From a virus (lineage: Duplodnaviria > Heunggongvirae > Uroviricota > Caudoviricetes), in the IMG/VR virus record IMGVR_UViG_3300012346_000380, positions 1 to 64,000 of that record: 64,000 nucleotides of DNA; one strand, written 5' to 3'. The position numbers and the translations under genes are program-made. This document shows positions 1,995 through 57,145 of this stretch, piece by piece. How positions within the stretch are numbered: position 1 is the first letter of the stretch; every line of letters starts with the position of its first letter. The notes under the pieces are model-generated. The model searched no databases. It saw only the letters and a list, made by a program, of their open reading frames with translations, and was not told the origin of the DNA.

Positions 1995-2076
1995 ATTTGT
2001 TTGTTTTTAATTATAAGGCTAATATACTGCTTTTATTTGACATAAAAAAATTATTTAGCATTTATTTTTAAAATAT
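1995..2076 (-). promoter_or_regulatory. conserved intergenic promoter/leader element copy P1 (GGCTAATATAC ... TTTGACATAAAAAAATTATTTAG ... TTATTTTT on the plus strand)
   Basis: It belongs to a family of at least 12 near-identical elements that sit immediately upstream (in minus sense) of gene starts. In gene orientation it reads ..TTTTTTTATGTCAAA..GTATATTAGCC..AATTAAAAACAAAC-ATG, which resembles a Bacteroidetes TAnnTTTG -7 box plus an A-rich leader. Confidence 0.5.
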
Positions 2077-2532
2077 TTACATATAAGAAGTAGAAAGACT
2101 CTTGAGATGATTTAAGAGTGCTTTATCTTCAATCCTATGAATTATTTTCATACCTTCTTGTTGTCTTTTAAGCGCAGTTATAGTATTGCCTGTGTGAAAT
2201 GTAATATTATGTAATTGTGCAACTTTAGGATCCATTTCGAAAATACATCCAGCAAATTGGTCTTCTTTTGTTTGCAAAGGCACTGAAATCCAATAAACTC
2301 TATGTGAATTCATAATCTTATTATATTGACCATTTGGTATTGAAAATGAATCATAATAAATTAGAGGTGCATTTGTTTTTACTTCAACATTATTTCCGTC
2401 AATGATCATGTCCTTTTCAGAATCAAAAATATTTAAGGATTCATCTACAACACATCCTGCATCTCTAAAATGTTTTGCTACAATCTTTTCGCCTAACATT
2501 CCTAATAGAACTTTTTTATAATCTACTTCCAT
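2077..2532 (-). CDS. hypothetical protein with a possible PD-(D/E)xK nuclease-like motif (IIDGNNVEVKT)
   Basis: ORF track. The D..EVK arrangement following a hydrophobic strand is suggestive only. Confidence 0.4.
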   Translation of the reverse strand: MEVDYKKVLLGMLGEKIVAKHFRDAGCVVDESLNIFDSEKDMIIDGNNVEVKTNAPLIYYDSFSIPNGQYNKIMNSHRVYWISVPLQTKEDQFAGCIFEMDPKVAQLHNITFHTGNTITALKRQQEGMKIIHRIEDKALLNHLKSLSTSYM

Positions 2533-2535
2533 TTT

Positions 2536-3948
2536 TTACATTGCATTTACAGCTGCAATAATCTGATCTATTTTGGTTAATAAAGATGCTTTAGAACTTC
2601 CAGCTTTTTCATTGATAAATCCTCTAGCTGTGTTAAGATCTTCTAAAGAAAATGTTTTATCACTACCATAAACTCTGGCTGCTAATGGATTTGTATTAAT
2701 CTTATTATTAACAAAAGTTAACATAAAATCTAAACATTTATCATAATTACCAGTGTTTGGATCAACTAATCTTGCGGCTGTACGAATATCATCATATAAA
2801 GCTTGTACATTGTTTGGTCTGTTAACTAAAGACTTCATAATCACAGCTTGTGTTAAGTATTGAAATCTTTTGCTTAAAAGAGCTTCAGCAATATATTTGG
2901 TTTCAAAGTTAGCAGTTCGGCCATAATTACCAATCCAACCTAAATACAACCACGTTGAGCGTACTTCATCTCTTTCTTCTAATTGTTGACTTACGCTACC
3001 GTTATCTAAACTTCTACGAGCAATATCACCCGCAAACCAAATTGGATCTAAAACCGACTCATAAGTATCGTCTGATAATTTACCATCTACATAGATATTA
3101 AATGGACCAAATTTACCACCTTTATATCTTATAACATGTTGAATATAAGCGCTTGACATCCATTTCATTGTGTTATAAGACTCTTTAAAGTCTGAGTAAC
3201 CATGCTCACCTGGGTGCTTTTGGCCTTCTGTCAAACTATTAAAGACTACTCTTTTAAATCTAACGTAATTTTCATCAGTTGGACTGTCAAGATAATTCAT
3301 ATATGCAGACTTGACTTGTAAATTACCATTTCTCAAAAGTTCCATTGGTTTATCTGGCATAATATCATTAATAGAAGCGGTATCAATCCAAGATGGCAAA
3401 GTAATTGGCACCTTAATTTGTGTAAAGTCCCAGTTATTAACTTGACTTACGCTATATGAAGCATTACTTAAGCCAACTGAGTTTGCAAATTGACCTTCAC
3501 TTACTATTTCACCTCCAGGTTGATACACGTTCTTGATTGAATTTCTAGGTGTAACTTTTCCTTTTGTTAAACTCTTAATGTAATTCATCACATTAATTGC
3601 ATCTTGTGTAGAAACGTGCTTTATTGCTCTGTGAAACGTACGATTCATAAAAGGAATTGAATCTATGTTGTTAAACAATGCAATGTCATAACCATCTTTA
3701 GAAACGTGACAGCTCATGCAAGAATGGCCGTCTTTGTCTAAAGTTGAAGTGTAGACTGTCTGTCCTTTAAGGATCGATTCGCTCATAGAACCAGAATTTA
3801 CAATTCTAGAATCCAACTGTGTTTCTGTGTTTAATTCTCCTGGGGCAACAGCAGTCACTGTAGTTTTTGGTGTAATTTCTTCAAGTTCATCTTTTGTACA
3901 AGATTGAAATAAAACTACAGCGACTAATAATAATGATAACTTTTTCAT
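2536..3948 (-). CDS. exported lipoprotein with a single CxxCH heme-c binding motif (putative c-type cytochrome domain protein)
   Basis: The start is taken at the internal ATG (MKKLSLLLVAVVLFQSC). The track ORF begins at a TTG and reads through the upstream promoter element. Signal peptide with a lipobox (FQSC). GHSCMSCHV supplies the only other cysteines in the protein. Confidence 0.6.
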   Translation of the reverse strand: MKKLSLLLVAVVLFQSCTKDELEEITPKTTVTAVAPGELNTETQLDSRIVNSGSMSESILKGQTVYTSTLDKDGHSCMSCHVSKDGYDIALFNNIDSIPFMNRTFHRAIKHVSTQDAINVMNYIKSLTKGKVTPRNSIKNVYQPGGEIVSEGQFANSVGLSNASYSVSQVNNWDFTQIKVPITLPSWIDTASINDIMPDKPMELLRNGNLQVKSAYMNYLDSPTDENYVRFKRVVFNSLTEGQKHPGEHGYSDFKESYNTMKWMSSAYIQHVIRYKGGKFGPFNIYVDGKLSDDTYESVLDPIWFAGDIARRSLDNGSVSQQLEERDEVRSTWLYLGWIGNYGRTANFETKYIAEALLSKRFQYLTQAVIMKSLVNRPNNVQALYDDIRTAARLVDPNTGNYDKCLDFMLTFVNNKINTNPLAARVYGSDKTFSLEDLNTARGFINEKAGSSKASLLTKIDQIIAAVNAM

Positions 3949-4014
3949 GTTCTTTGCTTTTTTGTTATATGTAAATATACCACAAATCTTTGACATAAAA
4001 AAATATTTAAGCAA
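3949..4014 (-). promoter_or_regulatory. conserved promoter/leader element copy P2 (TGTAAATATAC .. TTTGACATAAAAAAATATTTAAG)
   Basis: Same repeat family as P1. It lies directly upstream of the lipoprotein gene. Confidence 0.5.
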
Positions 4015-5091
4015 TTATTTTTCGTTTAAAAGAAATTTATTTGAAATAGCTTTAAAACTAATCTGTCTGTCCATGGTTCTAAACACTACACCTTCTCTAT
4101 CGAAGTTTGGGTTAAGCACTGACTTTGCTTCTGCAAAGGCTAAACAATCATCGATGGTTTCTGGCAATTTCATCGTTAGATTAGTTAAAATTGGCACAGT
4201 CTCTAACTTAAATTGATGTTTAAATAAAGCCAAGAACATAGGTAAACCATAATAATATTGATTGTCAATATCAAATGCGTTAAAGAATTTAACTGTATGT
4301 CCTTTGATTCCATAAGGATTGCCTTGAATTCCTTCACCGATCAATTCACCTTGTAAAGCCATGTTGTGATTATCATTCTCTCTCAATTTCTCTTCAATCT
4401 TCAATTCACGAGCTACTTTCCAAAATGTATTTTCTTCAGTTTCAAGTAAATCTAAATTTCTAGAGCAAACTCCAAATACGCCGTCATTTAAATAAAAAGT
4501 AGCTGAACTACCATCTAATTTCTCAGTCACGTAAAAGTCTAAATCTTCTTCAAACCATTTTTTATAAAAGCCTGTTAAATTTTGAACTCTCTCTTCATCA
4601 GTTTTTCTTAAGAATGATGGAAAGCTACCTTTAACTTTACCAGCTAATTCGGCTGGAATTGGTGGTTCATATTTAACTACGTTTAAATATTCTGTCACAT
4701 CTGCACCTTCTTCAATTACTAAAGCATTATCATAAGGTCCAACTTGTAATCTGTCTTCGCTCATTCCTATCTTATACTCATCGGGCCCTTCTAAAATACT
4801 CAAAGGCACTACAAGTCCTTGAGAAACTTGGCCTCTAAGTCTAATCGTTTTTAAACGAAAACCTTCTTGATCTGCCATTTTCTTAAAAGAGCTCTTGCGT
4901 AAAAACTCAAACTCTTCTCTAATCGGTAGAAATGAGTCAATTTCAAAATAAACGCAAAGATCTCCTGGCTTATATTCTCCTTTTTTAGAAACTACATCCC
5001 AGTTATTAATTCTTACAACTTCAATTGCATCAGCGCCTTCAATTGGTCTAATGCTTGCTACTCTTTGAATTGAGGCTAATTTTCTTTCCAT
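4015..5091 (-). CDS. ATP-dependent RNA ligase, Rnl5/DraRnl-like (N-terminal extra domain, nucleotidyltransferase KxDG motif at about residue 190)
   Basis: VTEKLDGSS is the lysine-adenylyltransferase motif I. It is preceded by an approximately 180-aa N-terminal domain (IEGADAIEVVRINNWD..GDLCVYFEIDSFLP), as in Rnl5/NgrRnl-type ligases. A DNA-ligase assignment is possible but less likely. Confidence 0.55.
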   Translation of the reverse strand: MERKLASIQRVASIRPIEGADAIEVVRINNWDVVSKKGEYKPGDLCVYFEIDSFLPIREEFEFLRKSSFKKMADQEGFRLKTIRLRGQVSQGLVVPLSILEGPDEYKIGMSEDRLQVGPYDNALVIEEGADVTEYLNVVKYEPPIPAELAGKVKGSFPSFLRKTDEERVQNLTGFYKKWFEEDLDFYVTEKLDGSSATFYLNDGVFGVCSRNLDLLETEENTFWKVARELKIEEKLRENDNHNMALQGELIGEGIQGNPYGIKGHTVKFFNAFDIDNQYYYGLPMFLALFKHQFKLETVPILTNLTMKLPETIDDCLAFAEAKSVLNPNFDREGVVFRTMDRQISFKAISNKFLLNEK

Positions 5092-5389: not shown

Positions 5390-6499
5390 TTATGAGTTTG
5401 AAAATGGTTTTTCAAACTCTGGTTTAATCATTTTCCAAATTGCATCTCTAATACTTTTATTGTTCTTAATAGAAAATAAAAGACCTGAATTTTTATAAAA
5501 TTTAGCTTCATTGGCAAACATTTTATCAAATTCAGTTTGATAAATTGCAACTCTATCAAAAATCTCATTGAATTTTCGATATGCATCTGCTTCTATTTTC
5601 GAGTAAGCCTCTCTCAAGGTTGTCTCTTGTGCTCTGACCCAATCATAGAACTCATCTGGCACGTCCTTTAGCAATTCTTCTGGTATCTTATTGAATTTCA
5701 TTAAGTTCTCCCAGATGTCATAAGAAGAGCATTGAGTTAGTATTCTGTGTAAAGCACAATAGTCTTCAAACTTAATTTTGACTCTCTTATTAGAAGGAAA
5801 GAATCTTAAAACGAAACCTTCTTTGTTTTGCTCATTCTTTTTCTTTAACGTCTTATATAGATCTTCATTTAAATTAAAGACTTGATTAGTTTCTACAATG
5901 TCATATTTTTCAATACCTGCACATTTAAAGAAAACACACGCCGTAGTCCAATTTAATTCATCAGTGTTTTCACCATCCCAATTCCATGAAGTATTGTAAG
6001 CTGCTCCTAAAAAGACTACCTTTTCAAAATCATACTTAACAACAATTCTATTTTCATTGTAAATGATCTCACACAAATAAGCAATAGCTGGTTCAAATGA
6101 TCTTAAATCATTATATCTAGCTTTGACCATTTCAAGACCTTTGATAGCTTGTACAGATGTAAAAGAGCCTCTAGTGGCCATGATCCATTCACCTTTATAA
6201 TTAAATAAGATACCTAATGAACCATCCATTTTCTCTTGCACATAGACATAATCAGAAGAAGTCCAAGGAATATCCTCAGCTACTTCTTCATAATTAAAAA
6301 ATTTAGGAAATGATTTAATAATAACCTCGCCAGTTGAATCATCGACGATTAAACCTCTACAAGCCAAAGTAATTTCATCCCATTTCTTTTCATATTGGGT
6401 AGCTTGTGAGTAATTGTATATGCTTAATGGTAAAGTTGGGTGACTTTGTTTAATCACCCAACCTTCTTCTACGTACTTGTCTAATATTTTCTTATTCAT
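5390..6499 (-). CDS. RNA ligase 1 family (T4 RnlA-like)
   Basis: At 369 aa with motif I VQEKMDGSLGILF near residue 100, it matches the T4 Rnl1 architecture (K99 in a KEDG-type motif). NYSQ..ITLACRGLIV lies upstream of that motif. Confidence 0.55.
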   Translation of the reverse strand: MNKKILDKYVEEGWVIKQSHPTLPLSIYNYSQATQYEKKWDEITLACRGLIVDDSTGEVIIKSFPKFFNYEEVAEDIPWTSSDYVYVQEKMDGSLGILFNYKGEWIMATRGSFTSVQAIKGLEMVKARYNDLRSFEPAIAYLCEIIYNENRIVVKYDFEKVVFLGAAYNTSWNWDGENTDELNWTTACVFFKCAGIEKYDIVETNQVFNLNEDLYKTLKKKNEQNKEGFVLRFFPSNKRVKIKFEDYCALHRILTQCSSYDIWENLMKFNKIPEELLKDVPDEFYDWVRAQETTLREAYSKIEADAYRKFNEIFDRVAIYQTEFDKMFANEAKFYKNSGLLFSIKNNKSIRDAIWKMIKPEFEKPFSNS

Positions 6500-6569
6500 C
6501 TTCTTTAATTATATGTAAATATACCAAAAATAAATGAGATAAAAAAATATCTAAGCACTTATTTTTAAA
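6500..6569 (-). promoter_or_regulatory. conserved promoter/leader element copy P3
   Basis: The sequence TTAATTATATGTAAATATACC..ATGAGATAAAAAAATATCTAAGCACTTATTTTTAAAT is a repeat-family member upstream of the Rnl1-like gene. Confidence 0.45.
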
Positions 6570-6966: not shown

Positions 6967-7632
6967 TTAACAAGTCATTGCATCATTGTGATGATCATGC
7001 TCGTGTTTTAATAAAGATTGTATTGGTCTATCTACAATTAGTTTCAAAACTTGATCAATAGTGTAAGGTTGAAAATCAGGGCTTCCATCAATTCCAACAT
7101 CCATCATTCTACCAGGCCCAACTTTAAATTGATGTGGTGTGTGAATATGACCATGGACGTGCATTACGCCTTGACCCATATCTTGCCAAGAAGCCAAAGG
7201 ATAATGACTCATGACGAATCTGTATTTTTTGGCTGCTTCACCTTTGGTAGTTGGTTGTATTACAATTGTCACCATTCTTTGCTCATTTACTGAGGCAAAA
7301 AGATCTTGAACATTATCTTTATTGTTAAGAATATGATGATCATGGTTTCCTAAGAATAAATGAATGTTCTTACAGTTTAATTTATTTCTGAATTCTACAA
7401 TAGAATCAAAGCCTCCAAAAGACCAGTCACCTAAGTGAATTAAAATATCGTCTTTCATAACTAACATGTTAATGTTGTCTTGTAAGTCAATATTCATTTG
7501 ATTTAATGATTCATAATCTCTAGTGCCTCGGGCTCCATCCCATTTAGAAACTCCTCTACAAATATTTGTATGGTTGTAATGCGTATCTGAAGTAAAAAAG
7601 ACTCTTTGTCCTGGGTTAACTACTATCTTCAT
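6967..7632 (-). CDS. calcineurin-like metallophosphoesterase (candidate 2',3'-cyclic/3'-phosphoesterase of the RNA-repair cassette)
   Basis: All MPP motifs are present: SDTHYNH (DxH), HLGDWSFGG (GD), FLGNHDHH (GNHD/E), and a GHxH region (HVHGHIH). Confidence 0.75.
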   Translation of the reverse strand: MKIVVNPGQRVFFTSDTHYNHTNICRGVSKWDGARGTRDYESLNQMNIDLQDNINMLVMKDDILIHLGDWSFGGFDSIVEFRNKLNCKNIHLFLGNHDHHILNNKDNVQDLFASVNEQRMVTIVIQPTTKGEAAKKYRFVMSHYPLASWQDMGQGVMHVHGHIHTPHQFKVGPGRMMDVGIDGSPDFQPYTIDQVLKLIVDRPIQSLLKHEHDHHNDAMTC

Positions 7633-7720
7633 AGTTTATTTGTTTTTAATTATAAGGCTAATATACAACAAATAATTGACATAAAAAAATATTTAAGTCT
7701 TTATTTTTAAAATATTTTAG
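7633..7720 (-). promoter_or_regulatory. conserved promoter/leader element copy P4
   Basis: The sequence TTTTAATTATAAGGCTAATATACAAC..ATTGACATAAAAAAATATTTAAGTCTTTATTTTTAAAATATT lies directly upstream of the phosphoesterase gene. Confidence 0.5.
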
Positions 7721-10801: not shown

Positions 10802-11017
10802 TTATAATTCTTTAACTGTTAAACGCTTTGCATCTACAACCGTACTTAATTTTTCAAATGCGATACTTGTTGAAGAGTCAGATGCTCTAAAACATAAATA
10901 ATGTTCTCCATCTAATACAATTCCATATTTACAAGATGCTAATTCTGTGATTGCAACATTTGCTTTTACTAAAATTGAATCTATCATTCCGCTAATTTGT
11001 TTTTCTAACTCAGTCAT
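10802..11017 (-). CDS. hypothetical small protein (start at the internal ATG MTELEKQ)
   Basis: The N-terminal 26 residues of the track ORF (..FFVYIYRVIKTIK) are a translation of the conserved promoter element and the terminator region. 'cat' at 11015-11017. Confidence 0.45.
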   Translation of the reverse strand: MTELEKQISGMIDSILVKANVAITELASCKYGIVLDGEHYLCFRASDSSTSIAFEKLSTVVDAKRLTVKEL

Positions 11018-11110
11018 ATTCTTTATTGTTTTAATTACTCTGTAAATATAAACAAAAAAGCCCAAATAAAAAAATATTTGAGCTTTTATTTTCATAAAGT
11101 TACGAACAAT
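11018..11110 (-). promoter_or_regulatory. terminator-promoter cassette copy P5 (hairpin AAGCCCAAAT/ATTTGAGCTT at about 11054-11085, then TGTAAATATA promoter-like box)
   Basis: Near-identical cassettes occur at 18011-18100 and 21492-21589. The hairpin plus T-run in minus sense lies downstream of gene 11111..11377. Confidence 0.5.
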
Positions 11111-11556: not shown

Positions 11557-11617
11557 GATTATATGTATTCTTATTTATTACACAAATATACGAATAATAA
11601 TTGAAAGTAAAAAATAT

Positions 11618-12379
11618 TTATGCGTATTTTTTAATGATATATTTTATTAATTCATTTGCGTATAATTGATGTGCTTCAAACGAAGGATGATCGTCATTTA
11701 TATTTGTAATATCACACAATCTTTGTTTAGTTTCAGTTGCAAAATCAAAAAGACTTTTGTAGCCAAACGGCATAAATTGATTTTTGCATAATTTATTACC
11801 TAATGTTATTTTATCTATGTTTTCACATGTAAAAATAAAATTAAAGTCGTGTAACGTAAGATAACTTATAAATCCTATTAATTGTCTTTTTATATCCTGT
11901 TCATAATACACTGGATTATAAAAACCATCGATCCAACTCTGTTTTTTTAATTCAAGTTTATTTAAATCATTTATAGAATGTAAATTTGGACACAACCATT
12001 CATCTATTAAAAATCCGTCTACTAATTTGTTATTTTCATATACAACATACATATTAAAATTATTTTGTAAATCATTAGACCATTCGTTGATTCTAAAAGG
12101 AGATTCATTAAATTGAAATATAAATAAAGTATCGTCTGTTTTATGTGAATCGATATAAGAATAAAAATCTTTAATGATTTTAATAACTCCTGTGCCCGAC
12201 ATAGAAACGTCTATGCTTGTTAAATTAAAATAATTTGAAACTGATTTTGTATAGGACGCATCTCTAGAATTTTTATAATTAATTCCTTGGTTAGCATACC
12301 ATTTTGCTGCTTCTTCGAGGCCTCCACCCGTAGTATACGAACATCCTGCAAAATAAATTTGTTTAAATGGAATTTTCAT
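11618..12379 (-). CDS. hypothetical protein (possible SGNH/GDSL-like hydrolase; weak)
   Basis: ORF track. The N-terminal FAGCSYTTGGG block loosely resembles the Ser-containing block I of SGNH hydrolases. Confidence 0.4.
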   Translation of the reverse strand: MKIPFKQIYFAGCSYTTGGGLEEAAKWYANQGINYKNSRDASYTKSVSNYFNLTSIDVSMSGTGVIKIIKDFYSYIDSHKTDDTLFIFQFNESPFRINEWSNDLQNNFNMYVVYENNKLVDGFLIDEWLCPNLHSINDLNKLELKKQSWIDGFYNPVYYEQDIKRQLIGFISYLTLHDFNFIFTCENIDKITLGNKLCKNQFMPFGYKSLFDFATETKQRLCDITNINDDHPSFEAHQLYANELIKYIIKKYA

Positions 12380-12757: not shown

Positions 12758-14185
12758 TTAAACAATTGGAGCGTATCTCTCGCTCAAGATTGTTTTGTCC
12801 ATGATTTGCTGTGGAGATTCAATATCTCCTCCAAGTAAACTTGTCATAATTGCTGGTGAGAAACCTGAAACTAATGCAGTTCCTGCTTTGTCAAAAGCAA
12901 CTGGCACTCCACCGTTTCTAGATTGAATATTCCAGTAAACAATTTGAGGCATTTTGTAACCTGAAGACTCATACATGTCGTTAATTACTTGTTGAGCTGT
13001 TGGATTCCATGATGCTTCATTTCTCCATGAGCTAGATCTAACAGCCTGATTAAATTCCATATCTGACAAGATTAGAATTTTGTTTGGCATCTCATCTTGA
13101 GACAATTTATGTTTAGTGGCCTGATCTAAGATCAGCTTGAAGGTCGCCTCGAGATTTGTTGACATTCCCCAATCGGAACATGACATCTGTGCGTAGCGAT
13201 CTTGCAATGAACCACTTAGTACTTGTAACTGTGGAGAGTTTGAAAATGTTATAAATGCATCTTTGAAAGGACCTTCATTTCTTTCAGAAATATAAAGACC
13301 TAAAGAGATTGCAACATCCATACATGTTACAGTTTTACTACCACCTGCTGAGCAAGACATAGAACCTGAAACATCCACCACTGGTAAAATCATATCGTTT
13401 GCTCCTTCTAAATAATTAGGAAGGGCTTTCCATTGTTCGTTTGCTACTTTTGCATTTCCATGAGTTAATGACTTAGTCACGTCATAAGGATAAACTGCAC
13501 CTGCATTAATTTTAGCTTCACCTTTCACTAAAGATTGGATATATGCTGAATAACTTTCGTATGCATTTTTACCGAAAGCTTTTTGGTAACGTGCTGATGC
13601 TACTGATGGTAATTTACCGAATTCGATAGAATCCCATTCTTTAGCACACATTTTAGTTTCAACTACATTAGTCAAATTAACTAAAGTTTTACGGTATTGT
13701 TTTGGAGATAAATCCATGAATTTACGTAACTTTTCAGCATTTTGACCTTTACGTGGCATCCATTTAGCGCATAAACCATTTTCTGCTTTAATAGCATTTT
13801 CGATTATAATCAACGCATCGTTTTCTAAATAAGTTCCAAAAAGAGATAATAAGTCATCGAAACGACCATACTCTGCAATCAAACCTAAATTTGGTTTTAA
13901 GGCTAAATCATGATTTTCAGCTAAGTAAACTAAAATGTCTTTAAAGACTTGACGTTCACCTGCACCACCTCTAACATCTCTTGCCCAAAACAAAAGTTTC
14001 ATAGCACGCTTAGGATCTTCATTGAAAGCTTTTGAAAAAGTTGCGATCAAACGTTGTTTGTCTTGGCCTCTCATTGCTCCAATATTAAAGAATAAGTCAA
14101 CACATGCATTCAATGAAGTTGAATTTGTTGCCATTCCATTTTCTGTTACGATGTCTTCTTGTCTTAAAGCGTCTACTAAGTTCAT
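12758..14185 (-). CDS. Ro60/TROVE-like protein with C-terminal vWA domain (Rsr ortholog candidate)
   Basis: 475 aa. The N-terminal helical region is followed by a vWA MIDAS motif VVDVSGSMS and downstream LILSDMEFN. This is the architecture of the Ro60 (TROVE + vWA) family, whose bacterial and phage members partner with Y RNAs. Confidence 0.5.
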   Translation of the reverse strand: MNLVDALRQEDIVTENGMATNSTSLNACVDLFFNIGAMRGQDKQRLIATFSKAFNEDPKRAMKLLFWARDVRGGAGERQVFKDILVYLAENHDLALKPNLGLIAEYGRFDDLLSLFGTYLENDALIIIENAIKAENGLCAKWMPRKGQNAEKLRKFMDLSPKQYRKTLVNLTNVVETKMCAKEWDSIEFGKLPSVASARYQKAFGKNAYESYSAYIQSLVKGEAKINAGAVYPYDVTKSLTHGNAKVANEQWKALPNYLEGANDMILPVVDVSGSMSCSAGGSKTVTCMDVAISLGLYISERNEGPFKDAFITFSNSPQLQVLSGSLQDRYAQMSCSDWGMSTNLEATFKLILDQATKHKLSQDEMPNKILILSDMEFNQAVRSSSWRNEASWNPTAQQVINDMYESSGYKMPQIVYWNIQSRNGGVPVAFDKAGTALVSGFSPAIMTSLLGGDIESPQQIMDKTILSERYAPIV

Positions 14186-14232
14186 TGTTTTTTGTTTTAG
14201 ATGTTAGTTATATTAGAATAAATCTTAATGTT

Positions 14233-14448
14233 TCATTTTATTTTGTATTTCTTTTTATAAGAATTGACAGTGGATTCAGAGTAACCTACACAAATCTCAT
14301 CAAGTTCCCATTCATTAGGGATTACTGGTTTCCTTTTGGTCGTTGACAGAATGTCGTCTACATTCATATTCTCCAGAATCATGATTTGGTGTTTCTTGCT
14401 TCTGCTCGATACTCGATAAACTATTATTATTCTTGGTTTCTCTGTCAT
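14233..14448 (-). CDS. hypothetical small protein
   Basis: ORF track. Confidence 0.4.
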   Translation of the reverse strand: MTEKPRIIIVYRVSSRSKKHQIMILENMNVDDILSTTKRKPVIPNEWELDEICVGYSESTVNSYKKKYKIK

Positions 14449-14493: not shown

Positions 14494-15093
14494 TTATTTT
14501 TCTAACTCCTCTGTGATGATGCGTTTACCTCTTAAGATACGATTTTTGATAGTTTGCAAAGGCAAATCATATTTGTCTGCAATATCTTCATACTTCATGT
14601 TGTTAAGTAAGCGATCAATTACAATCTCGCGATAAATTGGTTTCAAAGATTGAATAGCCTTTAAAGCTCCAGTGTATTGACTTTGTAATTCTTCATCTTC
14701 ATCAATAAAGTCTTGTTCAGTTTTAGCTTCAGAATCTTCTATCAATTGAGAAATATCTCCACCGATAAAACCTTCATCACCGACTTCAATACCGAATTCA
14801 GCTAATTTATTTAAAGATGTTTTCTTGTTACGTTCGTTAATGTAACCTAAACATTCATTAAATGCAATGCGATATAACCAAGTTGTGATTTGATATTGTG
14901 GATCATATTGATCAATCTTAGTCCACATTTTAGTTAATGTGTTTCCTACAATGTCCTCAGTCGCTTCGCTATCTTTAACAATTTTATTAATATAAGATTT
15001 TAATCCTGGTTTAACTTTACGATAAAGTGCTGTAAAATCCTTTTCTGATTTTGTCTCTAAAAAATTCTCTGTAAGTTCTCTGTAGTTTAACAT
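14494..15093 (-). CDS. sigma-70 family (ECF-type) RNA polymerase sigma factor
   Basis: Region 2 is TEDIVGNTLTKMWTKIDQYDPQYQITTWLYRIAFNECLGYINERNKK. Region 4 HTH is YEDIADKYDLPLQTIKNRILRGKRII. Confidence 0.7.
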   Translation of the reverse strand: MLNYRELTENFLETKSEKDFTALYRKVKPGLKSYINKIVKDSEATEDIVGNTLTKMWTKIDQYDPQYQITTWLYRIAFNECLGYINERNKKTSLNKLAEFGIEVGDEGFIGGDISQLIEDSEAKTEQDFIDEDEELQSQYTGALKAIQSLKPIYREIVIDRLLNNMKYEDIADKYDLPLQTIKNRILRGKRIITEELEK

Positions 15094-15178
15094 ATTTTGT
15101 TTGTGTTTTAATTATAAGTCAAATATACAACTAATATTTGACATAAAAAAATATTTTATGATAAAAAAGCAAAAAACT
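15094..15178 (-). promoter_or_regulatory. conserved promoter/leader element copy P6
   Basis: TTTTAATTATAAGTCAAATATACAAC..TTTGACATAAAAAAATATTTTATG lies upstream of the sigma-factor gene. Confidence 0.5.
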
Positions 15179-17791: not shown

Positions 17792-18010
17792 CTATCGATA
17801 TAAAGTCACATATTCACCAAAGTGCTTATCAAATGTTTCGACCAGATGCTCATAATCTGCTGATTTCATATCTTCTAAGATAGCTTCACCAGGTAAACCT
17901 AATTGTCTAGCTAAATCCATGGCAGTGCCTAATAAAAAATAAGCATTTCCCTGTGGGCCTGTTAAATCGATCTCTAACGCTTGATTTTTTTCTTTAATTG
18001 ATTTTATCAT
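17792..18010 (-). CDS. hypothetical small protein (start at the internal ATG MIKSIKEK)
   Basis: The track ORF's N-terminus (..FFLYIYKVIKTNK) translates the terminator/promoter cassette. 'cat' at 18008-18010. Confidence 0.45.
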   Translation of the reverse strand: MIKSIKEKNQALEIDLTGPQGNAYFLLGTAMDLARQLGLPGEAILEDMKSADYEHLVETFDKHFGEYVTLYR

Positions 18011-18100
18011 CTTGTTTGTTTTAATTACTTTGTAAATATACAAAAAAAAGCCCAAACTAAAAAATTTGGGCTTAACTATTTTCAAAAAATTATAGGCTTA
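18011..18100 (-). promoter_or_regulatory. terminator-promoter cassette copy P7 (hairpin AAGCCCAAA/TTTGGGCTT at about 18042-18073 plus TGTAAATATAC box)
   Basis: A perfect 9-bp stem with an 8-nt A-run on the plus side (T-run in minus sense). It is identical in design to the 21492-21589 copy. Confidence 0.55.
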
Positions 18101-20211: not shown

Positions 20212-20949
20212 CTACTTTTCGAACGTTGGTTTCAACCACATTCCATCTTGAAATAAAACTTCTTCGATCATTCCAGGATGTATGTCTTCTAATACGAATA
20301 ACATTTGCAAAGAAGTCATTGTATCTGCATGAAAACATTTAGTAAGTTCTTCTCTAATTCTTTGAGCACTTACAACCTCTTTCATTTTTACCCAAAGCAA
20401 TGGTTCTGCAATTGCTCTTTGAATATCTTCACACATTACAAAACCTTTAGTGATTGAAAATCTAAAAGCTCTTAGAATTCTCAAAGGATCATCCATAAAG
20501 GTTAACTTAGGATCTAAAGGTGTTACAAGTATCATTTGTTTTAAATGTTCTTGACCGTCAAACAAATCGATAATAGTTCCATCTTCAGCTTCTGCTAATG
20601 CGTTAACTGTAAAATCTCTACGCACTAAGTCATCTTCAAGAGTTCCAAGTTCTAAGATTGGTCTACGAGTTCCTTCTTCGTACCCAACTTCTTTACGAGC
20701 TAAAACAAAGTCAGCCACCATACCTTCATTCTCATGACCTTGTGGAAACTTAGCACGAATTGTAAAACAATCTGGCGTACTTAAAAAGATTGTAAACATG
20801 TGATGATCTAACCAATCTGTCATGATTTGAAATCCTTCTTCTACGGTTCTGTCTAGATTATCTAAGACAAATGTAAAATCAATATCGTTGGACTCTAGTC
20901 CAAGTAATCTATCTCTTACGCAACCTCCTACTTTAAATATTTTTGGCAT
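20212..20949 (-). CDS. class II tRNA nucleotidyltransferase head-domain protein (CCA-adding enzyme / poly(A) polymerase family, minimal form)
   Basis: N-terminal VGGCVRDRLLGLESNDIDF is the hallmark GGxVRD..DxD motif of Pol-beta-type CCA/A-adding enzymes. Confidence 0.7.
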   Translation of the reverse strand: MPKIFKVGGCVRDRLLGLESNDIDFTFVLDNLDRTVEEGFQIMTDWLDHHMFTIFLSTPDCFTIRAKFPQGHENEGMVADFVLARKEVGYEEGTRRPILELGTLEDDLVRRDFTVNALAEAEDGTIIDLFDGQEHLKQMILVTPLDPKLTFMDDPLRILRAFRFSITKGFVMCEDIQRAIAEPLLWVKMKEVVSAQRIREELTKCFHADTMTSLQMLFVLEDIHPGMIEEVLFQDGMWLKPTFEK

Positions 20950-21277
20950 CTTCTTTTAATTTTTTAATGTGTTTACAATCTCCTCTGTGAAATGAAGCTG
21001 ACGGGCAAGTACAACTCCATTTGTCATTATTATTTTTAACTTCGTAAAATTTACCTGGCTTCGAGGCTTCAACCTTATATGATTTAATTTCTAAAAGTTT
21101 TTTAGCTTCTACTTCTTTCTTTTCAACGTAATCTGTCATATCAAAATCGATTTGATCTCTAGTAGTTCCTTTAGGTACTGGATGCCAACCTGGACATATA
21201 TAAGTACCACTTAAAGTTGTTACAATTGCAAATGCAGTTCCGAATGGGCTACTTGGTTTGATAATAAACTTTTCCAT
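20933..21277 (-). CDS. hypothetical protein with a SWIM-type zinc finger
   Basis: WSCTCPSASFHRGDCKH fits the CxCxnCxH pattern. Confidence 0.45.
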   Translation of the reverse strand: MEKFIIKPSSPFGTAFAIVTTLSGTYICPGWHPVPKGTTRDQIDFDMTDYVEKKEVEAKKLLEIKSYKVEASKPGKFYEVKNNNDKWSCTCPSASFHRGDCKHIKKLKEDAKNI

Positions 21278-21278: not shown

Positions 21279-21491
21279 TTATTGATTTTCTACTGGAATA
21301 ATAGTTGTGGTAGGTACGCTAATATCAAAGAAACTTTCATATCCTCTTTTTACATCCTCAAAACAAGCTAAAGTAACGTCATCGTTTTCTTTAGAAAATC
21401 CTGAAAAAACAAGACCATCATATCCATCTGGTCTAAATTGTGTTGTAACAATATATTCTTTTCCTTCTACTAATAATTCTAAGTTTTTCAT
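21279..21491 (-). CDS. hypothetical small protein (start at the internal ATG MKNLELL)
   Basis: The track N-terminus (MGFFSYIYIYKLKQ) is a translation of the cassette. 'cat' at 21489-21491. Confidence 0.45.
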   Translation of the reverse strand: MKNLELLVEGKEYIVTTQFRPDGYDGLVFSGFSKENDDVTLACFEDVKRGYESFFDISVPTTTIIPVENQ

Positions 21492-21589
21492 AATGGATGT
21501 TTGTTTTAATTTGTATATGTAAATATACGAAAAAAAGCCCAAACTAAAAAATTTGGGCTTAATTATTTTCGTAAAGTTACGAACAATTT
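21492..21589 (-). promoter_or_regulatory. terminator-promoter cassette copy P8 (hairpin AAGCCCAAA/TTTGGGCTT at about 21529-21560 plus TGTAAATATAC box)
   Basis: It has the same stem and loop as the 18042-18073 copy. The flanking AAAGTTACGAACAATTT is shared with the 11018-11110 copy. Confidence 0.55.
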
Positions 21590-23986: not shown

Positions 23987-24071
23987 AATAGTTGTTGTTT
24001 TAATTATAAGGCTAATATACGAACTTTATTTGAAATAAAAAAATATTTAAGTAATTATTTTTCAAAAGTTA
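23987..24071 (-). promoter_or_regulatory. conserved promoter/leader element copy P9
   Basis: The sequence is TTTTAATTATAAGGCTAATATACGAAC..TTTGAAATAAAAAAATATTTAAGTAATTATTTTT. Confidence 0.5.
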
Positions 24072-24233
24072 TTAACAATCTTCTAGATCATTTTCAACTA
24101 TTTCATATCGTCTACCGCCAATATCGTTCCATGCGTATAATTGAGCAGCATCAAAAGTTGTAAAACTTTTAATATCGTTTTGGAATATTTCAATACCATC
24201 AGAAAAGAAAGGAATAACTGTAAAGACTGTCAT
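24072..24233 (-). CDS. hypothetical small protein (start at the internal ATG MTVFTV)
   Basis: The track N-terminus (MLYIYRVIKNKQI) translates the promoter element. 'cat' at 24231-24233. Confidence 0.4.
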   Translation of the reverse strand: MTVFTVIPFFSDGIEIFQNDIKSFTTFDAAQLYAWNDIGGRRYEIVENDLEDC

Positions 24234-24294
24234 AATTTGTTTGTTTTTAATTACTCTGTAAATATACAACAAACATTTGACATAAAAAAATATT
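24234..24294 (-). promoter_or_regulatory. conserved promoter/leader element copy P10
   Basis: The sequence is TTTTTAATTACTCTGTAAATATACAACAAACATTTGACATAAAAAAATATTTTAG. Confidence 0.5.
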
Positions 24295-24900
24295 TTAGTA
24301 CTTTTTTACTAAATATTTTTCATACGAGCCGCTAACTCGTTGGTTTGGAAAGTAATAAGACTTGAATTTTTTTCCATTTAAAGAGATCGTTTTTGTAAAT
24401 CCAACTGGAATCATAGCTCCGGTGGTGTTTCTAATAGATCCAAAAAAGTCTAATGTAATTAAAACTGAAACTTTATTATTAATGGCCAACTCTTTTTCAT
24501 AGGATTCTAAATCTTTCCATTGGCCTCTATTTAAATCTTTGTGTTGCAACGCGCAATTAACATAAGAAAAGGTTTCTTTTAAAGCAGTTTCATCACAATT
24601 AAAATCAGCGGCTGGAGCCATGTGTCCTTTATCGTAGTCGTTGTGTGCATAATCTAGATCATCTGCAGTGTGAACATCTGATTCTACATAAAAATTTAAA
24701 CCTTGTCTAGAATTATAATTTGCTTTAGATTGTTTGGAGTTACATAACACATCGTAAGTAACCATAAGAGGTTGCTCCAGACTCTGTGAATAAACAGAAG
24801 TATAGTGTTGTTTTTTAATTGTAACATTTTGTAATTCTCCAGTGGGATTGAAGAAAAATAGCAGCCAAGAGGCTGCTATAATTTTAACAAGGGGTGCCAT
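24295..24900 (-). CDS. secreted DNA/RNA non-specific endonuclease (Serratia nuclease / EndoG family, DRGH-type active site)
   Basis: Signal peptide MAPLVKIIAASWLLFFF. The catalytic motif DKGHMAPAADF is of the RGH type (beta-beta-alpha-Me finger). Confidence 0.55.
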   Translation of the reverse strand: MAPLVKIIAASWLLFFFNPTGELQNVTIKKQHYTSVYSQSLEQPLMVTYDVLCNSKQSKANYNSRQGLNFYVESDVHTADDLDYAHNDYDKGHMAPAADFNCDETALKETFSYVNCALQHKDLNRGQWKDLESYEKELAINNKVSVLITLDFFGSIRNTTGAMIPVGFTKTISLNGKKFKSYYFPNQRVSGSYEKYLVKKY

Positions 24901-45357: not shown

Positions 45358-46605
45358 TTAAAACAATTCGTTTAGATTTTTAGTCAAGGGTTTTTCATTA
45401 GATGTATCTAAATCTGAAAAAGCATCATAACTTTTAGGTGCATTTTCAGCTTTAGTTGCCATCCATTTGTTACCTTCTAGAATTCTTTCCATCTGTGTCA
45501 ATTTATTAAGAGTAGGTTCTATAATAACATCTTTTTCTATAGCAGATTGCATTTGTTCTTGAATAGGTTCTGGAATAGTATTATGGTGCAATAACATAAT
45601 ATCTAAGTTTTGATTAAATCTTAATTTGATTTGAGACTTAGAAGAGTTATTAACCACTCTATACGTAATATCTACGATTTTATCAACTTGAGCATCACTA
45701 AACATGTGATCAATTACAAATGATTCTTCTTCTTTAAGATATTGATCTAAGATTTTATCAGCTTGTTTTTGTGTAATGCTATAAGTTCTACCGCCTTTAA
45801 CCCAAGAAACCACAGATTTAATGTTATCTGATTTATCACCCATTAAAATCTTTTGAAAGATAAAATGATCACAGTTAATTTCTTCTATTTCAATACCATT
45901 CTTTTTGATCCAATCCATGACGTCCATTCTCATTTTTTCTAAGAATGAAGTTTTACTAGCCAAATTAAAAAGTAAATCATCATCGTCTTCAGTTCTATCG
46001 TCGATATCTGTGGCAATCATTTTATTAAAGCCTTCAAATACAATTAATTTCTTTTTGGTATTGTAGTACCATAATGTATAACCGTCAGTTGCTTTAGAGT
46101 AATCTACTAATTGAATTAAATCTCTATCACCGGTCCAAACAATACAGTTTTTACCATTAGCATTTAAGTAAGTTGACCATGCAAATAAGATGTCATCGGC
46201 TTCTGCGCCTGGAATCTGCTCCACGATCACACCCTGTTTAGCCAAAACAGTTTTAAACTCTTCATATATTTGATATACGCTGTCCCAACAAACTGTCTCA
46301 TTCTGCACTCTGGTGCCTTTGTACTCAGCTTCTGGAAAAAGGTCTTTACGCCATGACTTAGAATCAATTGCCAAGACAATACGATCCACAAATGGTTGCA
46401 TTTTTCTAATTTCAGATGCGAAATCTATTGCCAATTTTCTCATAAATTGACCTTTGCTTTTATCGTCTTCTAGTAACTTTCCACTAGAAGGCTTAGGCAT
46501 AACGAAAAGCCTACTGTATATGAAGTAGTTTCCGTCAATTAATAATGTGTGTTTGCCTAGTCTCATTTCTTCTTCGTTGTTATTGTAAATATAACTATTT
46601 TCCAC
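45358..46605 (-). CDS. 5'-3' exonuclease / FLAP endonuclease (T4 RNase H / Pol I 5' nuclease family)
   Basis: N-terminal LLIDGNYFIYSRLF (the hallmark LLxDGn motif). The C-terminal helix-rich domain has acidic clusters. Confidence 0.65.
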   Translation of the reverse strand: MENSYIYNNNEEEMRLGKHTLLIDGNYFIYSRLFVMPKPSSGKLLEDDKSKGQFMRKLAIDFASEIRKMQPFVDRIVLAIDSKSWRKDLFPEAEYKGTRVQNETVCWDSVYQIYEEFKTVLAKQGVIVEQIPGAEADDILFAWSTYLNANGKNCIVWTGDRDLIQLVDYSKATDGYTLWYYNTKKKLIVFEGFNKMIATDIDDRTEDDDDLLFNLASKTSFLEKMRMDVMDWIKKNGIEIEEINCDHFIFQKILMGDKSDNIKSVVSWVKGGRTYSITQKQADKILDQYLKEEESFVIDHMFSDAQVDKIVDITYRVVNNSSKSQIKLRFNQNLDIMLLHHNTIPEPIQEQMQSAIEKDVIIEPTLNKLTQMERILEGNKWMATKAENAPKSYDAFSDLDTSNEKPLTKNLNELF

Positions 46606-49825: not shown

Positions 49826-49868
49826 AGTATTATTTTTATATACATTATATATCTTTTAAAATTTGAGC

Positions 49869-53837: not shown

Positions 53838-53846
53838 TTTATTTTA

Positions 53847-55499: not shown

Positions 55500-56117
55500 T
55501 TATATATTCATATTTCTATAGTACTCTGTGAAAAGTCTCTTGATTTTCCACGGACTAGCACCATTTAACTTTATAAAATCGCATAAAGCTATTTTAGCCC
55601 AGCTCTCATAAGATACCACAGCTTGATTCTTTTTAAGATGTGTTTTATATCTTCTTATGGCAAATCCAAAGCCATATTTGTCTAAATATCTCTTAACAAC
55701 TTCATAGTTTAAAGATCTTAATGGACTTTGTAAACTAGCATTGTCTTTTTTAATACCTGTTTTTTGAGCAGCTATTTGAGAGTGGTACATCTTATAGAAA
55801 TTATCTAAGAATTCTTCTTTGAATTTAACTGGTAATAAATTTAGGTTAATACCGCACTCTGTTGTTTTGTCAATTGGCAAAAGAGCTAGAACGACCGGAT
55901 TCATATCCCACCATTCTAAAGTTTCTTTTGTTAATGGATTGACATAATCGAATACATAAATTTTACCTGGTTCAAATGGTTTAACAATACGCTCAACCGA
56001 TTTATCTTTTCTACTCTTAAGAGCATCTGAAAACCATTTCTCAGAAACATTTCGAGCTTCTTTTTTGCTCTTGTTTTCTTTGATCATTTTCAATATTTCT
56101 TTCTTAACGTAATCCAT
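55500..56117 (-). CDS. hypothetical protein
   Basis: ORF track. Confidence 0.5.
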   Translation of the reverse strand: MDYVKKEILKMIKENKSKKEARNVSEKWFSDALKSRKDKSVERIVKPFEPGKIYVFDYVNPLTKETLEWWDMNPVVLALLPIDKTTECGINLNLLPVKFKEEFLDNFYKMYHSQIAAQKTGIKKDNASLQSPLRSLNYEVVKRYLDKYGFGFAIRRYKTHLKKNQAVVSYESWAKIALCDFIKLNGASPWKIKRLFTEYYRNMNI

Positions 56118-56589
56118 TAATTGAGTCTTCTGTTAAAACTATAAAATTCCAGTTTCTATTTTTACAATATTCTTTTGCAAACGTATATTTGTCTAAATTC
56201 TTAATATACTGTTCTGCTAAAAATTGATATGAACTTAAAGCTTTTTTAGAAGCTTTTTTCGGGGGCTCTGGTTTTATCAATTGTTGTTTTGGTTTGATTT
56301 CTACTAGAAATTCTTTAAGATTATTATCTTCTTGAAGAACTTTCATATAGAAGTCTGGATAATATATATGCTTTTTATTATCCACTCTAGATATGTATTC
56401 TATTTGGACCGGCTCGCTGGACCACATCATAACTTTGTCATTGTTATCACACCACATCATAAACTTTCTTTCCCATGAAGATCTGTATATGATTGGAGTA
56501 GGACCAACGTACTTAGTTGGATCATTAGGTATATAGTAACCTTGATTGAATCCTGACTTTTTTGTAGGTCTTACGTTTTTTATTGACAT
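56104..56589 (-). CDS. hypothetical protein
   Basis: ORF track. Confidence 0.5.
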   Translation of the reverse strand: MSIKNVRPTKKSGFNQGYYIPNDPTKYVGPTPIIYRSSWERKFMMWCDNNDKVMMWSSEPVQIEYISRVDNKKHIYYPDFYMKVLQEDNNLKEFLVEIKPKQQLIKPEPPKKASKKALSSYQFLAEQYIKNLDKYTFAKEYCKNRNWNFIVLTEDSINGLR

Positions 56590-56591
56590 TG

Positions 56592-57044
56592 TTATATTGT
56601 GTAAATTCCACCCATATCGCTGTCTTCTCCGTTGTGAGAATTAGCTTTATTTAATGAGATAGTACCTTTGTATTTTTCTGGGTGAATTGCATTCCAACCT
56701 TTAGCATAACCTCTTTTAGCGATTTCTGTAAAGTATGCAAATGCATTAGTGTATTTAGGATTAAAGCCTTTCCAATACTTTAACAAATCCAAAATAGCGA
56801 ATGATAGACAATCTTCTCTGTCTTTTTCATCAACATATTTCATTCTGTTAATTGCTTTTTCCGCCAAAAGAATAAGCATTTTTTCTGCTTCTTTAGTTAG
56901 CTTTTCCTGCTCTTTTGAAATTACGATTTGATCGTATAAATCCCTATTATTTAAATAGTTTTTCTTTCTGGCCGTTTTCTTAACCGGCGTTGTGGTTTCA
57001 ACAACTGCGGGTTTTTGTTCTGTAATGTTTGTGTTTGTTGCCAA
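56592..57044 (-). CDS. hypothetical protein; possible gp55-like late-transcription sigma factor
   Basis: 150 aa. KNYLNNRDLYDQIVISKEQEKLTKEAEKMLILLAEKAINRMKY loosely resembles the N-terminal region of T4 gp55-type late sigma factors. Weak. Confidence 0.35.
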   Translation of the reverse strand: MATNTNITEQKPAVVETTTPVKKTARKKNYLNNRDLYDQIVISKEQEKLTKEAEKMLILLAEKAINRMKYVDEKDREDCLSFAILDLLKYWKGFNPKYTNAFAYFTEIAKRGYAKGWNAIHPEKYKGTISLNKANSHNGEDSDMGGIYTI

Positions 57045-57145
57045 TGTATGTCTGTTTTTAGTTTATTATACGTAAATATTCAATTTTGTTTATAAACTAA
57101 AAAGGGGACGCAATAGCGACCCCTTTTAAATATTTGTATGAAATG
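57045..57145 (-). promoter_or_regulatory. terminator (GGGGACGC-aata-GCGACCCC at about 57099-57123) plus a TACGTAAATATTC promoter-like box
   Basis: A hairpin with one mismatch and AAAAA on the plus side (T-run in minus sense) lies downstream of gene 57146..57907. A variant of the conserved box lies upstream of 56592..57044. Confidence 0.45.

Follow-up and report, generated by a model that had tools for sequence, protein, structure and literature searches.

The stretch analyzed here, called the window, is the 64,000-nucleotide (nt) sequence at positions 1 to 64,000 of the phage record IMGVR_UViG_3300012346_000380 in IMG/VR. Its G+C content is 32% and nearly all of its open reading frames (ORFs) are on the minus strand. 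In transcriptional order, replication and virion genes occupy 64–26 kb, and ∼45 mostly small ORFs lie between 24.3 and 1.3 kb. The latter part encodes a T4 Rnl1-like RNA ligase, an RtcB-like protein, a CCA-adding enzyme, and a HAD "RNA repair" protein, as well as a phosphoesterase, an Fpg/Nei glycosylase, a sigma factor of the extracytoplasmic function (ECF) type, and three tRNAs. Here, a repeated control unit of ∼75 bases heads 11 gene groups of a predicted early region. This element, a putative promoter and leader, is our subject. Its copies, identified by the position of their anchor, and two related sites and one unrelated site are as follows.

24234..24309, minus strand: copy c24267, T7-ATGTCAA type with box TATATTTA, before a 53-amino-acid (aa) ORF (ATG at 24233); 73.8 bits, leave-one-out 62.7.
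23987..24062, minus strand: copy c24020, box TATATTAG, before a 93-aa ORF (ATG at 23986).
21492..21570, minus strand: copy c21528, hairpin type GCCCAAATTTTTTAGTTTGGGC (21537–21558) plus U-tract, box TATATTTA; −19.1 kcal/mol, z −6.2.
18011..18083, minus strand: copy c18041, hairpin type (18050–18071 plus T8), before a 72-aa ORF; −14.2 kcal/mol, z −3.1.
15094..15170, minus strand: copy c15128, canonical box TATATTTG, heading the phage ECF-type sigma gene.
11557..11633, minus strand: copy c11591, box TATATTTG, before a 54-aa ORF; 55.4 bits, leave-one-out 33.0.
11018..11093, minus strand: copy c11051, hairpin type GCTCAAATATTTTTTTATTTGGGC (11060–11083), anchor T rather than G; −16.5 kcal/mol, z −4.9.
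7633..7708, minus strand: copy c7666, 77.3 bits, heading the phosphoesterase gene (6967..7632), directly after a 950-nt ORF-free stretch.
6500..6566, minus strand: copy c6524, heading the Rnl1-like RNA ligase gene (5390..6499); one partner of a 2.5-kb difference with relative L191 (IMGVR_UViG_3300047483_000490).
3949..4022, minus strand: copy c3980, before a 470-aa ORF (ATG at 3948); the other partner of a chimeric copy in L191.
1995..2069, minus strand: copy c2027, before a 94-aa ORF; relative L021 (3300046323_000337) carries an insertion here.
1633..1700, minus strand: half copy, box GTATATTTAG at 1671–1681 with the upstream part displaced, ∼40 nt before tRNA-Leu/Thr/Arg.
34153..34207, minus strand: box-only partial copy, GTATATTTACA at 34184–34194, before a 55-aa ORF; 16.5 bits with a box profile, below threshold with the full profile.
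57045..57145, minus strand: non-member, a GC terminator hairpin (57104–57123) and T-run followed by unrelated TTGAATATTTACGTATAATAAAC; no profile match.

The repeat is real and far exceeds chance. A profile of 68 columns, built from the copies and covering −42 to +26 around the G of GTATATT, identifies exactly 11 full sites in the window, all on the minus strand, with anchors from 2027 to 24267; the full copies occupy 1995 to 24309. Leave-one-out scores are 33–70 bits versus a maximum of −0.2 in 20 dinucleotide shuffles, the alignment of all copies between the T-run and the GTATATT box is free of gaps, and GTATATTTACA with at most one mismatch occurs 17 times versus 3.7 expected. Between 1.3 and 24.3 kb, 15 intergenic gaps are 60 nt or longer, and 11 of them contain a full copy. 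Full copies are confined to 2.0–24.3 kb, among small ORFans and RNA-repair genes, and none is present in the structural and replication part at 26–64 kb. A preliminary description had reported the conserved repeat at 12 intervals spanning 2–57 kb. Ten of these are full members, but 34153–34207 has the box without the T7/TGTCAA half and 57045–57145 does not belong; the copy at 11557–11633 and the half copy before the tRNAs had been overlooked, and the true span is ∼1.6–24.3 kb.

As had been described, copies abut starts of minus-strand genes. All 11 full copies lead to the ATG of a minus-strand ORF, 16–28 nt after the box. Around RtcB homologues in 80 loci, 86 matches are on the gene strand and none on the other, and an ORF start follows 101 of the 111 unique IMG/VR copies among the matches listed, at a median distance of 24 nt. 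The account of spurious N-termini also holds, as five longest-ORF calls begin inside the element (four at TTG and one at ATG) and gain 13–26 residues, including LLYIYRVIKNKQI and ..VYIYRVIKTIKN.

24072..24272, 21279..21542, 17792..18085, 10802..11095, and 2536..4014, minus strand: over-extended ORF calls.

Because orthologous leaders differ by 1-nt indels that break frames, these extensions are not conserved as coding sequence. At another locus, an exonuclease ORF (45358..46605) was called from GTG and has a half-copy box, TTATATTTACA (46584–46594), within its first 40 nt; the gene probably truly starts at an in-frame ATG ∼17–18 nt after that box.

The anatomy of the element is uniform. Positions are numbered with +1 set 5 nt after the box, following Flavobacterium johnsoniae. 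An A-tract, GAAAATAA, at about −55 to −47 is separated by a variable 9–10 nt from a run of seven T residues (T7) at −36 to −30. In eight copies, ATGTCAA(A/T)T follows at −29 to −21, and in three (c21528, c18041, and c11051), the ATGTCAA block is replaced by the 3′ arm of a GC hairpin and a U-tract. A G at −13 (T in c11051) directly precedes the box TATATT(TA/AG/TG) at −12 to −5, read as TATATTTA in six copies, TATATTAG in three, and TATATTTG in two. The leader is A-rich, 11–23 nt long, and without a Shine-Dalgarno sequence; it often includes TAATTAAAA(A)CAAAC before the ATG. Relative to the ATG, all 11 copies have an A at −3, and A-runs are frequent at −11 to −14. No full copy lacks the A-tract, the promoter-like box, the leader, or the ATG. 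Among the downstream halves, sub-types can be distinguished (..TACAGAGTAATT.., ..TAGCCTTATAATT.., and ..TACATATAA..), each of which pairs freely with either upstream type, suggesting exchange inside the element.

The three hairpins in the window have U-tracts, folding energies of −14 to −19 kcal/mol, and z of −3 to −6, and are predicted to be intrinsic terminators for the upstream unit. RNA folding of the other eight copies yields no stable structure, at best a decayed A-U stem. Many relatives have a GC hairpin directly before the T7, such that the terminator U-tract and the T-run at −33 are the same bases; in others, the T-run is the hairpin loop. Stems at this place differ between relatives and include GCCCAAA/TTTGGGC, GGCCTGACA/TGTCAGGC, GCCATAC/GTATGGC, and ACCCAGA/TCTGGGT. 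Both sides of the stem are altered in 6 of 10 pairs, a supportive observation only, as the set was picked because it folds. Just upstream of two hairpin-type copies, at 21568–21583 and 11091–11106, is a palindrome, TTCGTAA-CT-TTA(C/T)GAA, perfect or nearly so (TTCGTAA-CT-TTACGAA at the first), and a related sequence, TTGTTAATAACTTTTGAA, precedes c24020. The palindrome may be an operator or a second small hairpin.

The identity of the phage bears on which polymerase could read such an element. PHROG profiles identify markers of the T4 superfamily in the window: a DnaB-like helicase, gp46/gp47-like SbcCD, portal, prohead protease, major head protein, and the large terminase subunit TerL. The TerL is 30–41% identical to those of huge uncultured phages, Tenacibaculum phage PTm1, Lak phages, and Flavobacterium phage MaF61. 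Because of these profile matches and TerL relatives, we assign the window by sequence to an uncultured phage of the T4 superfamily. No cultured phage is near the window at the DNA level; in 50,697 phage records, 12 kb of the window had no match by megablast and one copy of the element had none by blastn. The host is probably a member of Bacteroidota, family Flavobacteriaceae. Full phage-type copies occur on contigs binned with metagenome-assembled genomes of Flavobacteriaceae, which is weak host evidence.

Promoters of these bacteria have a distinct grammar. In F. johnsoniae, the −7 consensus is TAHHTTTG, transcription starts 4–5 nt downstream, and AT-rich motifs at −18 and −28 stand out more clearly than the −33 element, which is reported to be barely evident; T−12, A−11, T−8, T−7, T−6, and G−5 are nearly invariant in the host promoters (PMC6847099). 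The median 5′ untranslated region (UTR) in Flavobacterium psychrophilum is 24 nt (PMC9723704). Adenines at −3 and −11 to −14 are positive determinants of Shine-Dalgarno-independent initiation in F. johnsoniae. The box of the element agrees with this Flavobacterium consensus at 6–8 of 8 positions, keeping T−12, A−11, no G at −10/−9, T−8, and T−7, with T−12, A−11, T−8, and T−7 invariant in the window copies. The element is T-rich at −20 to −14 and AT-rich at −30 to −21, resembling Bacteroidota primary-sigma promoters around −18 and −28. If transcription starts 4–5 nt after the box, the predicted 5′ UTR is 11–23 nt, comparable with host leaders, and the adenines before the ATG fit initiation independent of a Shine-Dalgarno sequence. 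The earlier proposal of a Bacteroidetes −7-type promoter with such a leader is supported in part and in silico, in that the element looks like such a promoter and leader, but the TTTG ending of the host consensus is present in only 2 of 11 copies and the TTG at −33 is missing.

From these features, we consider it probable that the element is an early promoter and leader read by the host sigma-A RNA polymerase. Unmodified host holoenzyme would initiate at the copies early in infection, with the GAAAATAA A-tract in the position of an UP element and the T7 at the site of the weak Bacteroidota −33 element. The copies would drive short operons of RNA-repair genes, small ORFans, probably tRNAs, and the phage ECF sigma gene. 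Since the sigma gene is behind a copy, the element must be read before that sigma exists, which points to the host holoenzyme. The phage ECF sigma would then serve a second class of promoter, TGAAAC-N16-ATATAA, and a third class without a −35, ATATATAAT, would serve the structural genes. The half copy before the tRNAs, which has the box and lacks the upstream half, weakly favors a transcription over a translation signal. In distant relatives (RtcB ∼60% identical), equivalent positions have promoters of the form A-tract-CTTGACA-N18-(TAG)TAnnTTTG(C/T)A, mostly with a G at −13. Seven loci (L244, L246, L248, L250, L255, L261, and L266) have a repeated promoter of their own, (A)n-CTTGACA-N18-TAG-TA(T/C)(A/C)TTTG(C/T)A, a textbook Bacteroidota −33/−7 pair in which the −33 part is identical to the Escherichia coli −35 hexamer.

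The T4 early promoters offer a parallel (reviewed in PMC2988021). They too are a numerous class before short early operons and are conserved beyond the sigma contacts, including in A/T tracts, although their consensus and the host polymerase differ from those of the element. By analogy, the element is presumably tuned to outcompete host promoters.

The copies are also sites at which genomes differ. The main differences between the window and its close relatives (80–98% identical DNA) are cassette changes with ends in copies. Relative L021 (98% identical) has two additional ORFs (69 and 81 aa) between the box and leader of c2027 and the ATG of gene 1994, with a half copy, GTATATT..ATTAAAAACAAACAAATATG, at the right edge of the inserted segment. 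In L005/L191, the orthologue of c24020 has a leader that runs directly into the ATG of a homologue of gene 21277..20933, which is 2.7 kb further on in the window. Past a shared terminator at 12403–12420, the window has a late-type promoter, L095/L191 has a full copy and a different gene, and L189 has a copy whose T7 is the U-tract of the terminator itself. The orthologue of c15128 in L095/L191 is nearly identical. In L191, a single chimeric copy has its left flank from c6524 and its right part and downstream gene from c3980; in the window, these two copies are separated by 2.5 kb that includes the RNA ligase gene and two ORFs. Recombination between two direct copies would be expected to leave such a chimera. 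Over 21 kb, 6–7 of ∼13 breakpoints between the window and L191 are within 50 nt of a copy versus ∼2.9 expected at random gene borders, of which copies occupy ∼22% (binomial P of 0.05–0.01). Because near-identical direct repeats of 70–90 nt recur every 0.25–4 kb, we suggest that the copies act as crossover points at which gene cassettes would be deleted, inserted, or exchanged.

Mobility of a different kind is suggested for the RtcB-like protein. It is 85–94% identical in L189, L190, and L193–L199, loci whose other genes are unrelated to the window and in which the RtcB module is followed by their single copy of the element. The module, consisting of an ECF-type promoter, RtcB, a small ORF, and a terminator, looks horizontally mobile.

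A combination of promoter, terminator, and shuffling is known from T4-type phages. In RB49/phi1, PST/T4, and nt-1/KVP40, it takes the form of promoter-early stem-loop (PeSL) cassettes (Arbiol et al. 2010, PMC2839356; Comeau et al. 2014, PMC4122927). PeSLs are ∼100 bp of conserved sequence with an AT-rich stretch, stem-loop terminator, host-type early promoter, ribosome-binding site, and ATG. They cluster in hyperplastic regions beside differential ORFans, degraded half copies exist, and crossovers have been mapped to the AT-rich part or between the −10 box and ATG (PMC2839356, PMC4122927). The element shares with PeSLs a T4-superfamily genome, conservation over ∼70–100 bp, many direct copies among small ORFans and accessory genes of a hyperplastic region, rarity in structural modules, copies at borders of insertions, deletions, and replacements between close relatives, crossovers in the AT-rich part or between the box and ATG, half copies, and a chimeric copy. 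Unlike PeSLs, whose promoter is TTGACA-N17-TATAAT with the stem-loop upstream, the element has a promoter of the Bacteroidota −7 type, an A-rich Kozak-like leader without a Shine-Dalgarno sequence, an extra TGTCAA box, and, in 3 of 11 copies, a stem-loop that overlaps the promoter such that the loop is the T-run at −33 and the U-tract abuts the box. Further traits of PeSLs are measured promoter and terminator activity and mini-circles that form during infection. The likeness is one of sequence, and the promoter and terminator activities of the element are putative. On its genomic features, the element appears to be the Bacteroidota counterpart of PeSL cassettes rather than a new kind of thing.

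Copies that are recombination junctions, three of them terminators, could instead be DNA elements without a role in initiating transcription of the downstream genes: a recombination or mobility element (similar to a miniature inverted-repeat transposable element, or a homing target), a signal for replication or packaging, an array of pure terminators, or a plus-strand antisense promoter. For the last, the plus strand reads TTGACAT and, 23 nt later, TATTTTT(C/A), and some IMG/VR copies have TATTTTGC there, near the TAnnTTGY of F. psychrophilum. Yet the copies always have the orientation of the downstream gene and a fixed distance to its ATG, conservation is strongest in the −7-like box and leader rather than in terminal repeats, 8 of 11 copies lack a stable hairpin, and neither target-site duplications nor an associated transposase or homing endonuclease were found. 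An antisense promoter TTGACAT-N23-TATTTTT as the main function was rejected, because the G is missing from the candidate −7 boxes on the plus strand of the window, the 23-nt spacing from the TTG is long, and there are no genes on that strand to serve. We regard this group of explanations as highly improbable.

Several observations weigh against an early promoter read by host sigma-A and joined to a shuffling cassette. The TTTG ending is present in 7 of the 111 IMG/VR copies among the matches listed, in addition to the two in the window, and the others end in TTTA or TTAG; 9 of the 11 window boxes end in TA or AG. Host promoters pair −33 TTTG with −7 TAnnTTTG, whereas no window copy has a TTG 19–21 nt upstream of the box, where there is instead the T-run (TTT in T7), and the nearest TG is 14 nt away. 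The best-conserved upstream block, TGTCAA (−29 to −24), belongs to no sigma-A signal described for Bacteroidota. The block reads TTGACA on the opposite strand, is too near the box at 14 nt for contact by sigma region 4, and is kept in relatives in which the T-run is broken (TTTTGGGTTGTCAA and TTTTCTAGTGTCAA). The G at −13, T7, and TGTCAA are conserved far beyond the level of host promoters, and T7/TGTCAA is upstream of none of 22 candidate host promoters from Bacteroidota loci, a small sample. A convincing stem-loop is in only 3 of 11 copies and the terminator part is therefore optional, the covariation count is partly circular, and about half of the breakpoints with relatives are away from copies in a small enrichment test. 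The assignment of promoter function itself is drawn from sequence. Two other ways of placing the upstream contacts were rejected. With TATATT as a sigma-70 −10 and a −35 at 17 nt, only the T-run is at −35 and TGn is not conserved, and the TG of ATGTCAA as a canonical −33 has a spacing of 14 rather than 19–21 nt.

The position of TGTCAA also suggests a middle-type, delayed promoter, in which host sigma-A would read the −7 box and a phage-encoded activator or sigma-remodeling factor would be needed at TGTCAA. The fixed 14-nt distance, the retention of TGTCAA in relatives that have lost the T-run, and a −7 box that is systematically sub-consensus at −6/−5 in this lineage are as expected of an activated promoter. 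Relatives without TGTCAA have a perfect TAnnTTTG and a canonical TTGACA, as if an activator offsets a weaker core, and PmSL (promoter-middle stem-loop) cassettes built on Mot boxes are documented in vibriophage nt-1. As in T4 middle promoters and PmSLs, a conserved box of 6–9 nt takes the place of the canonical upstream element, at a short and constant distance from a good downstream box. But the box differs in sequence and position from that of T4 middle promoters, being centered at ∼−25 rather than −30 as is the MotA box, and the three hairpin-type copies lack TGTCAA while sharing the same box and leader. Furthermore, a Pfam scan of 20 of the ∼90 window ORF products had no MotA/AsiA match, and the 64 kb showed no canonical early class apart from the element. 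An activator is unlikely, and we retain it because a sub-consensus core with a fixed upstream box recalls T4 middle promoters.

A farther-reaching version, which we find doubtful, is that TGTCAA and the non-canonical TATATT(AG/TA) define a class that host sigma-A polymerase cannot use unaided, and that is read only once the Bacteroidota polymerase has been re-targeted by a factor that the phage encodes or injects. A large clade of uncultured aquatic T4-like phages, represented by at least 119 IMG/VR loci, would have this class in common and spread it on mobile cassettes. If true, the re-targeting of polymerase would be a system like sigma appropriation in a phylum with none known. We continue to favor recognition by the unmodified host holoenzyme.

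The repeat is not the only motif class in the window. Contrary to the preliminary description, which had proposed a single dominant promoter class, there are at least two more, ATATATAAT and TGAAAC-N14-TA(A/G)TATAA. Their sites and the phage sigma gene are listed below.

49844..49852, minus strand: late-like ATATATAAT, also at 57932, 55499, 53406, 51521, 35421, 24903, and 12382.
33976, 36074, 38658, and 44096, minus strand: looser ATATATA(A/G), before 33937, 36037, 38621, and 44064.
14208..14235, minus strand: TGAAAC-N14-TAATATAA, before the RtcB-like gene (12758..14185).
47607–47634, 20207–20234, and 1304–1331: other matches of the TGAAAC class.
14494..15093, minus strand: ECF-type sigma, 199 aa (Pfam Sigma70_r2, 3.6e-11; Sigma70_r4_2, 3e-9), first gene behind c15128.

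All eight exact matches of ATATATAAT are on the minus strand and intergenic, mostly before structural genes. The motif, as (G/A)ATATATAAT, is 10–40 nt before structural genes and has no −35 partner; together with the looser sites, it precedes portal, protease, capsid, terminase, and tail genes. The late box of T4 is TATAAATA. By analogy, ATATATAAT resembles it and may define a late-like class; no gp55-like sigma was seen in the window.

TGAAAC-N14-TA(A/G)TATAA has four matches in the window versus 0.3 expected. It is kept before RtcB in ∼20 relatives with otherwise diverged flanks, and the TGAAAC-N14-TAGTATAA promoter belongs to this class. Its geometry, TGAAAC and ATATAA separated by 16 nt, is of the ECF type. 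The best solved relatives of the phage sigma are RpoE, SigW, and SigH, and its homologues occur in huge phages, Lak phages, and crAss-like phages. Because the sigma is of the ECF type and the motif has ECF geometry, we infer that the TGAAAC class, and not the repeat, is its target.

The reverse assignment, in which the phage ECF-type sigma recognizes the element, regulates its own gene, and has the repeat as its regulon, draws on the copy directly upstream of the sigma gene and on conservation of that gene at ∼60–96% identity in many motif-bearing relatives. Many IMG/VR copies also read CGTATATT, recalling the CGT −10 box of ECF promoters (PMC9723704). However, the window copies do not keep the C of CGT, and have T, C, G, or A before the G. 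ECF promoters have an AAC −35 and a −10 that is often CGT, 16–17 nt apart as set by the sigma4/sigma2 pair, whereas the element has no AAC block and its conserved blocks are 8–14 nt apart. The exact ECF geometry is that of TGAAAC-N16-ATATAA, conserved in the window and relatives, and a sigma gene solely behind its own promoter could not be switched on. The comparison with ECF sigma specificity that the preliminary description had put forward fits the TGAAAC class instead, and an ECF regulon is a very unlikely account of the repeat. That description had also overlooked the real terminator hairpin in three copies, the departure of T7 and TGTCAA from a canonical −33, and the use of copies as shuffling breakpoints. 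Four genes upstream of the sigma gene (15179–17662) accompany it in many relatives; three have no family match, one is Fpg/Nei-like glycosylase, and the four may form a functional module with the sigma.

The element is widespread in uncultured phages. The pattern TTTTTTATKTCAA-N9-GTATATT is in at least 119 IMG/VR loci. Among the matches listed, positions outside the search pattern are also conserved (AAAATAA upstream and AG.A..T.TAAT.AAAA downstream) and 50 loci have proteins in common with the window. For 10 proteins from loci that carry the motif but are otherwise unrelated, a PHROG scan identified a T4-like baseplate wedge and TerL, the others being unknown. In 50,697 phage records, a 72-nt consensus of the IMG/VR copies has a diverged version solely in the T4-like Chryseobacterium jumbo phages MA9V-1 and MA9V-2. 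A search of 185,579 reference genomes located the pattern at 68 loci, and Bacteroidota assemblies account for 37 of these. Chromosomal Bacteroidota matches read GTATATTTGCA, an ordinary −7 box; because they were selected by the pattern itself, these matches cannot show enrichment. We found no literature for Bacteroidota phages on such cassettes or this motif, or on early promoters of T4-like flavobacterial phages. In four loci (L007, L011, L020, and L074), a conserved non-coding sequence (..AACGACGCGTACTCAGGCTCTATGCCATAGCTTGG..) without an ORF is behind the copies, and no tRNA or Rfam match was found downstream of the copies there. It may be a phage small RNA driven by the element.

The genes of the RNA-repair set include the following.

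24295–24900: nuclease.
22749–23402: HAD "Swiss-army-knife RNA repair" domain protein.
20212–20949: CCA-adding enzyme.
12758..14185, minus strand: RtcB-like protein, behind a TGAAAC-class motif.
6967..7632, minus strand: phosphoesterase (PHROG 547), behind copy c7666.
5390..6499, minus strand: Rnl1-like RNA ligase, behind copy c6524.
1632..1379, minus strand: tRNA-Leu/Thr/Arg cluster.

A search of the whole window against Rfam identified four tRNAs and nothing else. The dense RNA-repair set, these four tRNAs included, spans 1379–25738 and suggests counter-defense against host anticodon nucleases. On the minus strand, the ∼950 nt at 7720–8670 have no ORF longer than 50 aa and a higher G+C content than the surroundings, and end in two tRNA-like 3′ modules (CAGGTTCGAATCCTG..TGACT) at ∼7860–7886 and 7722–7745. 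For this stretch, ARAGORN was negative and Rfam gave only a tRNA at 19 bits (E of 0.58). Most of it is missing or rearranged in L191, and the stretch may encode one or two large structured RNAs whose ends resemble those of tRNAs.

For T4-like phages of Flavobacteriia, a large group that has hardly been studied, the element provides an annotation rule, with true gene starts 16–28 nt after GTATATTWR. The three motif classes split genes into a likely early, an ECF-sigma, and a late program. As a candidate strong and portable promoter and leader, the element could also be of use in the genetics of Flavobacteriia. More broadly, the idea of PeSL cassettes is extended to a phylum whose promoters follow another grammar and whose genes do without Shine-Dalgarno sequences. 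Because conserved cassettes seem to link shuffled genes in phages of Bacteroidota too, our findings suggest that promoter-terminator cassettes as shuffling linkers are a general design of T4-like genomes and not a proteobacterial peculiarity.

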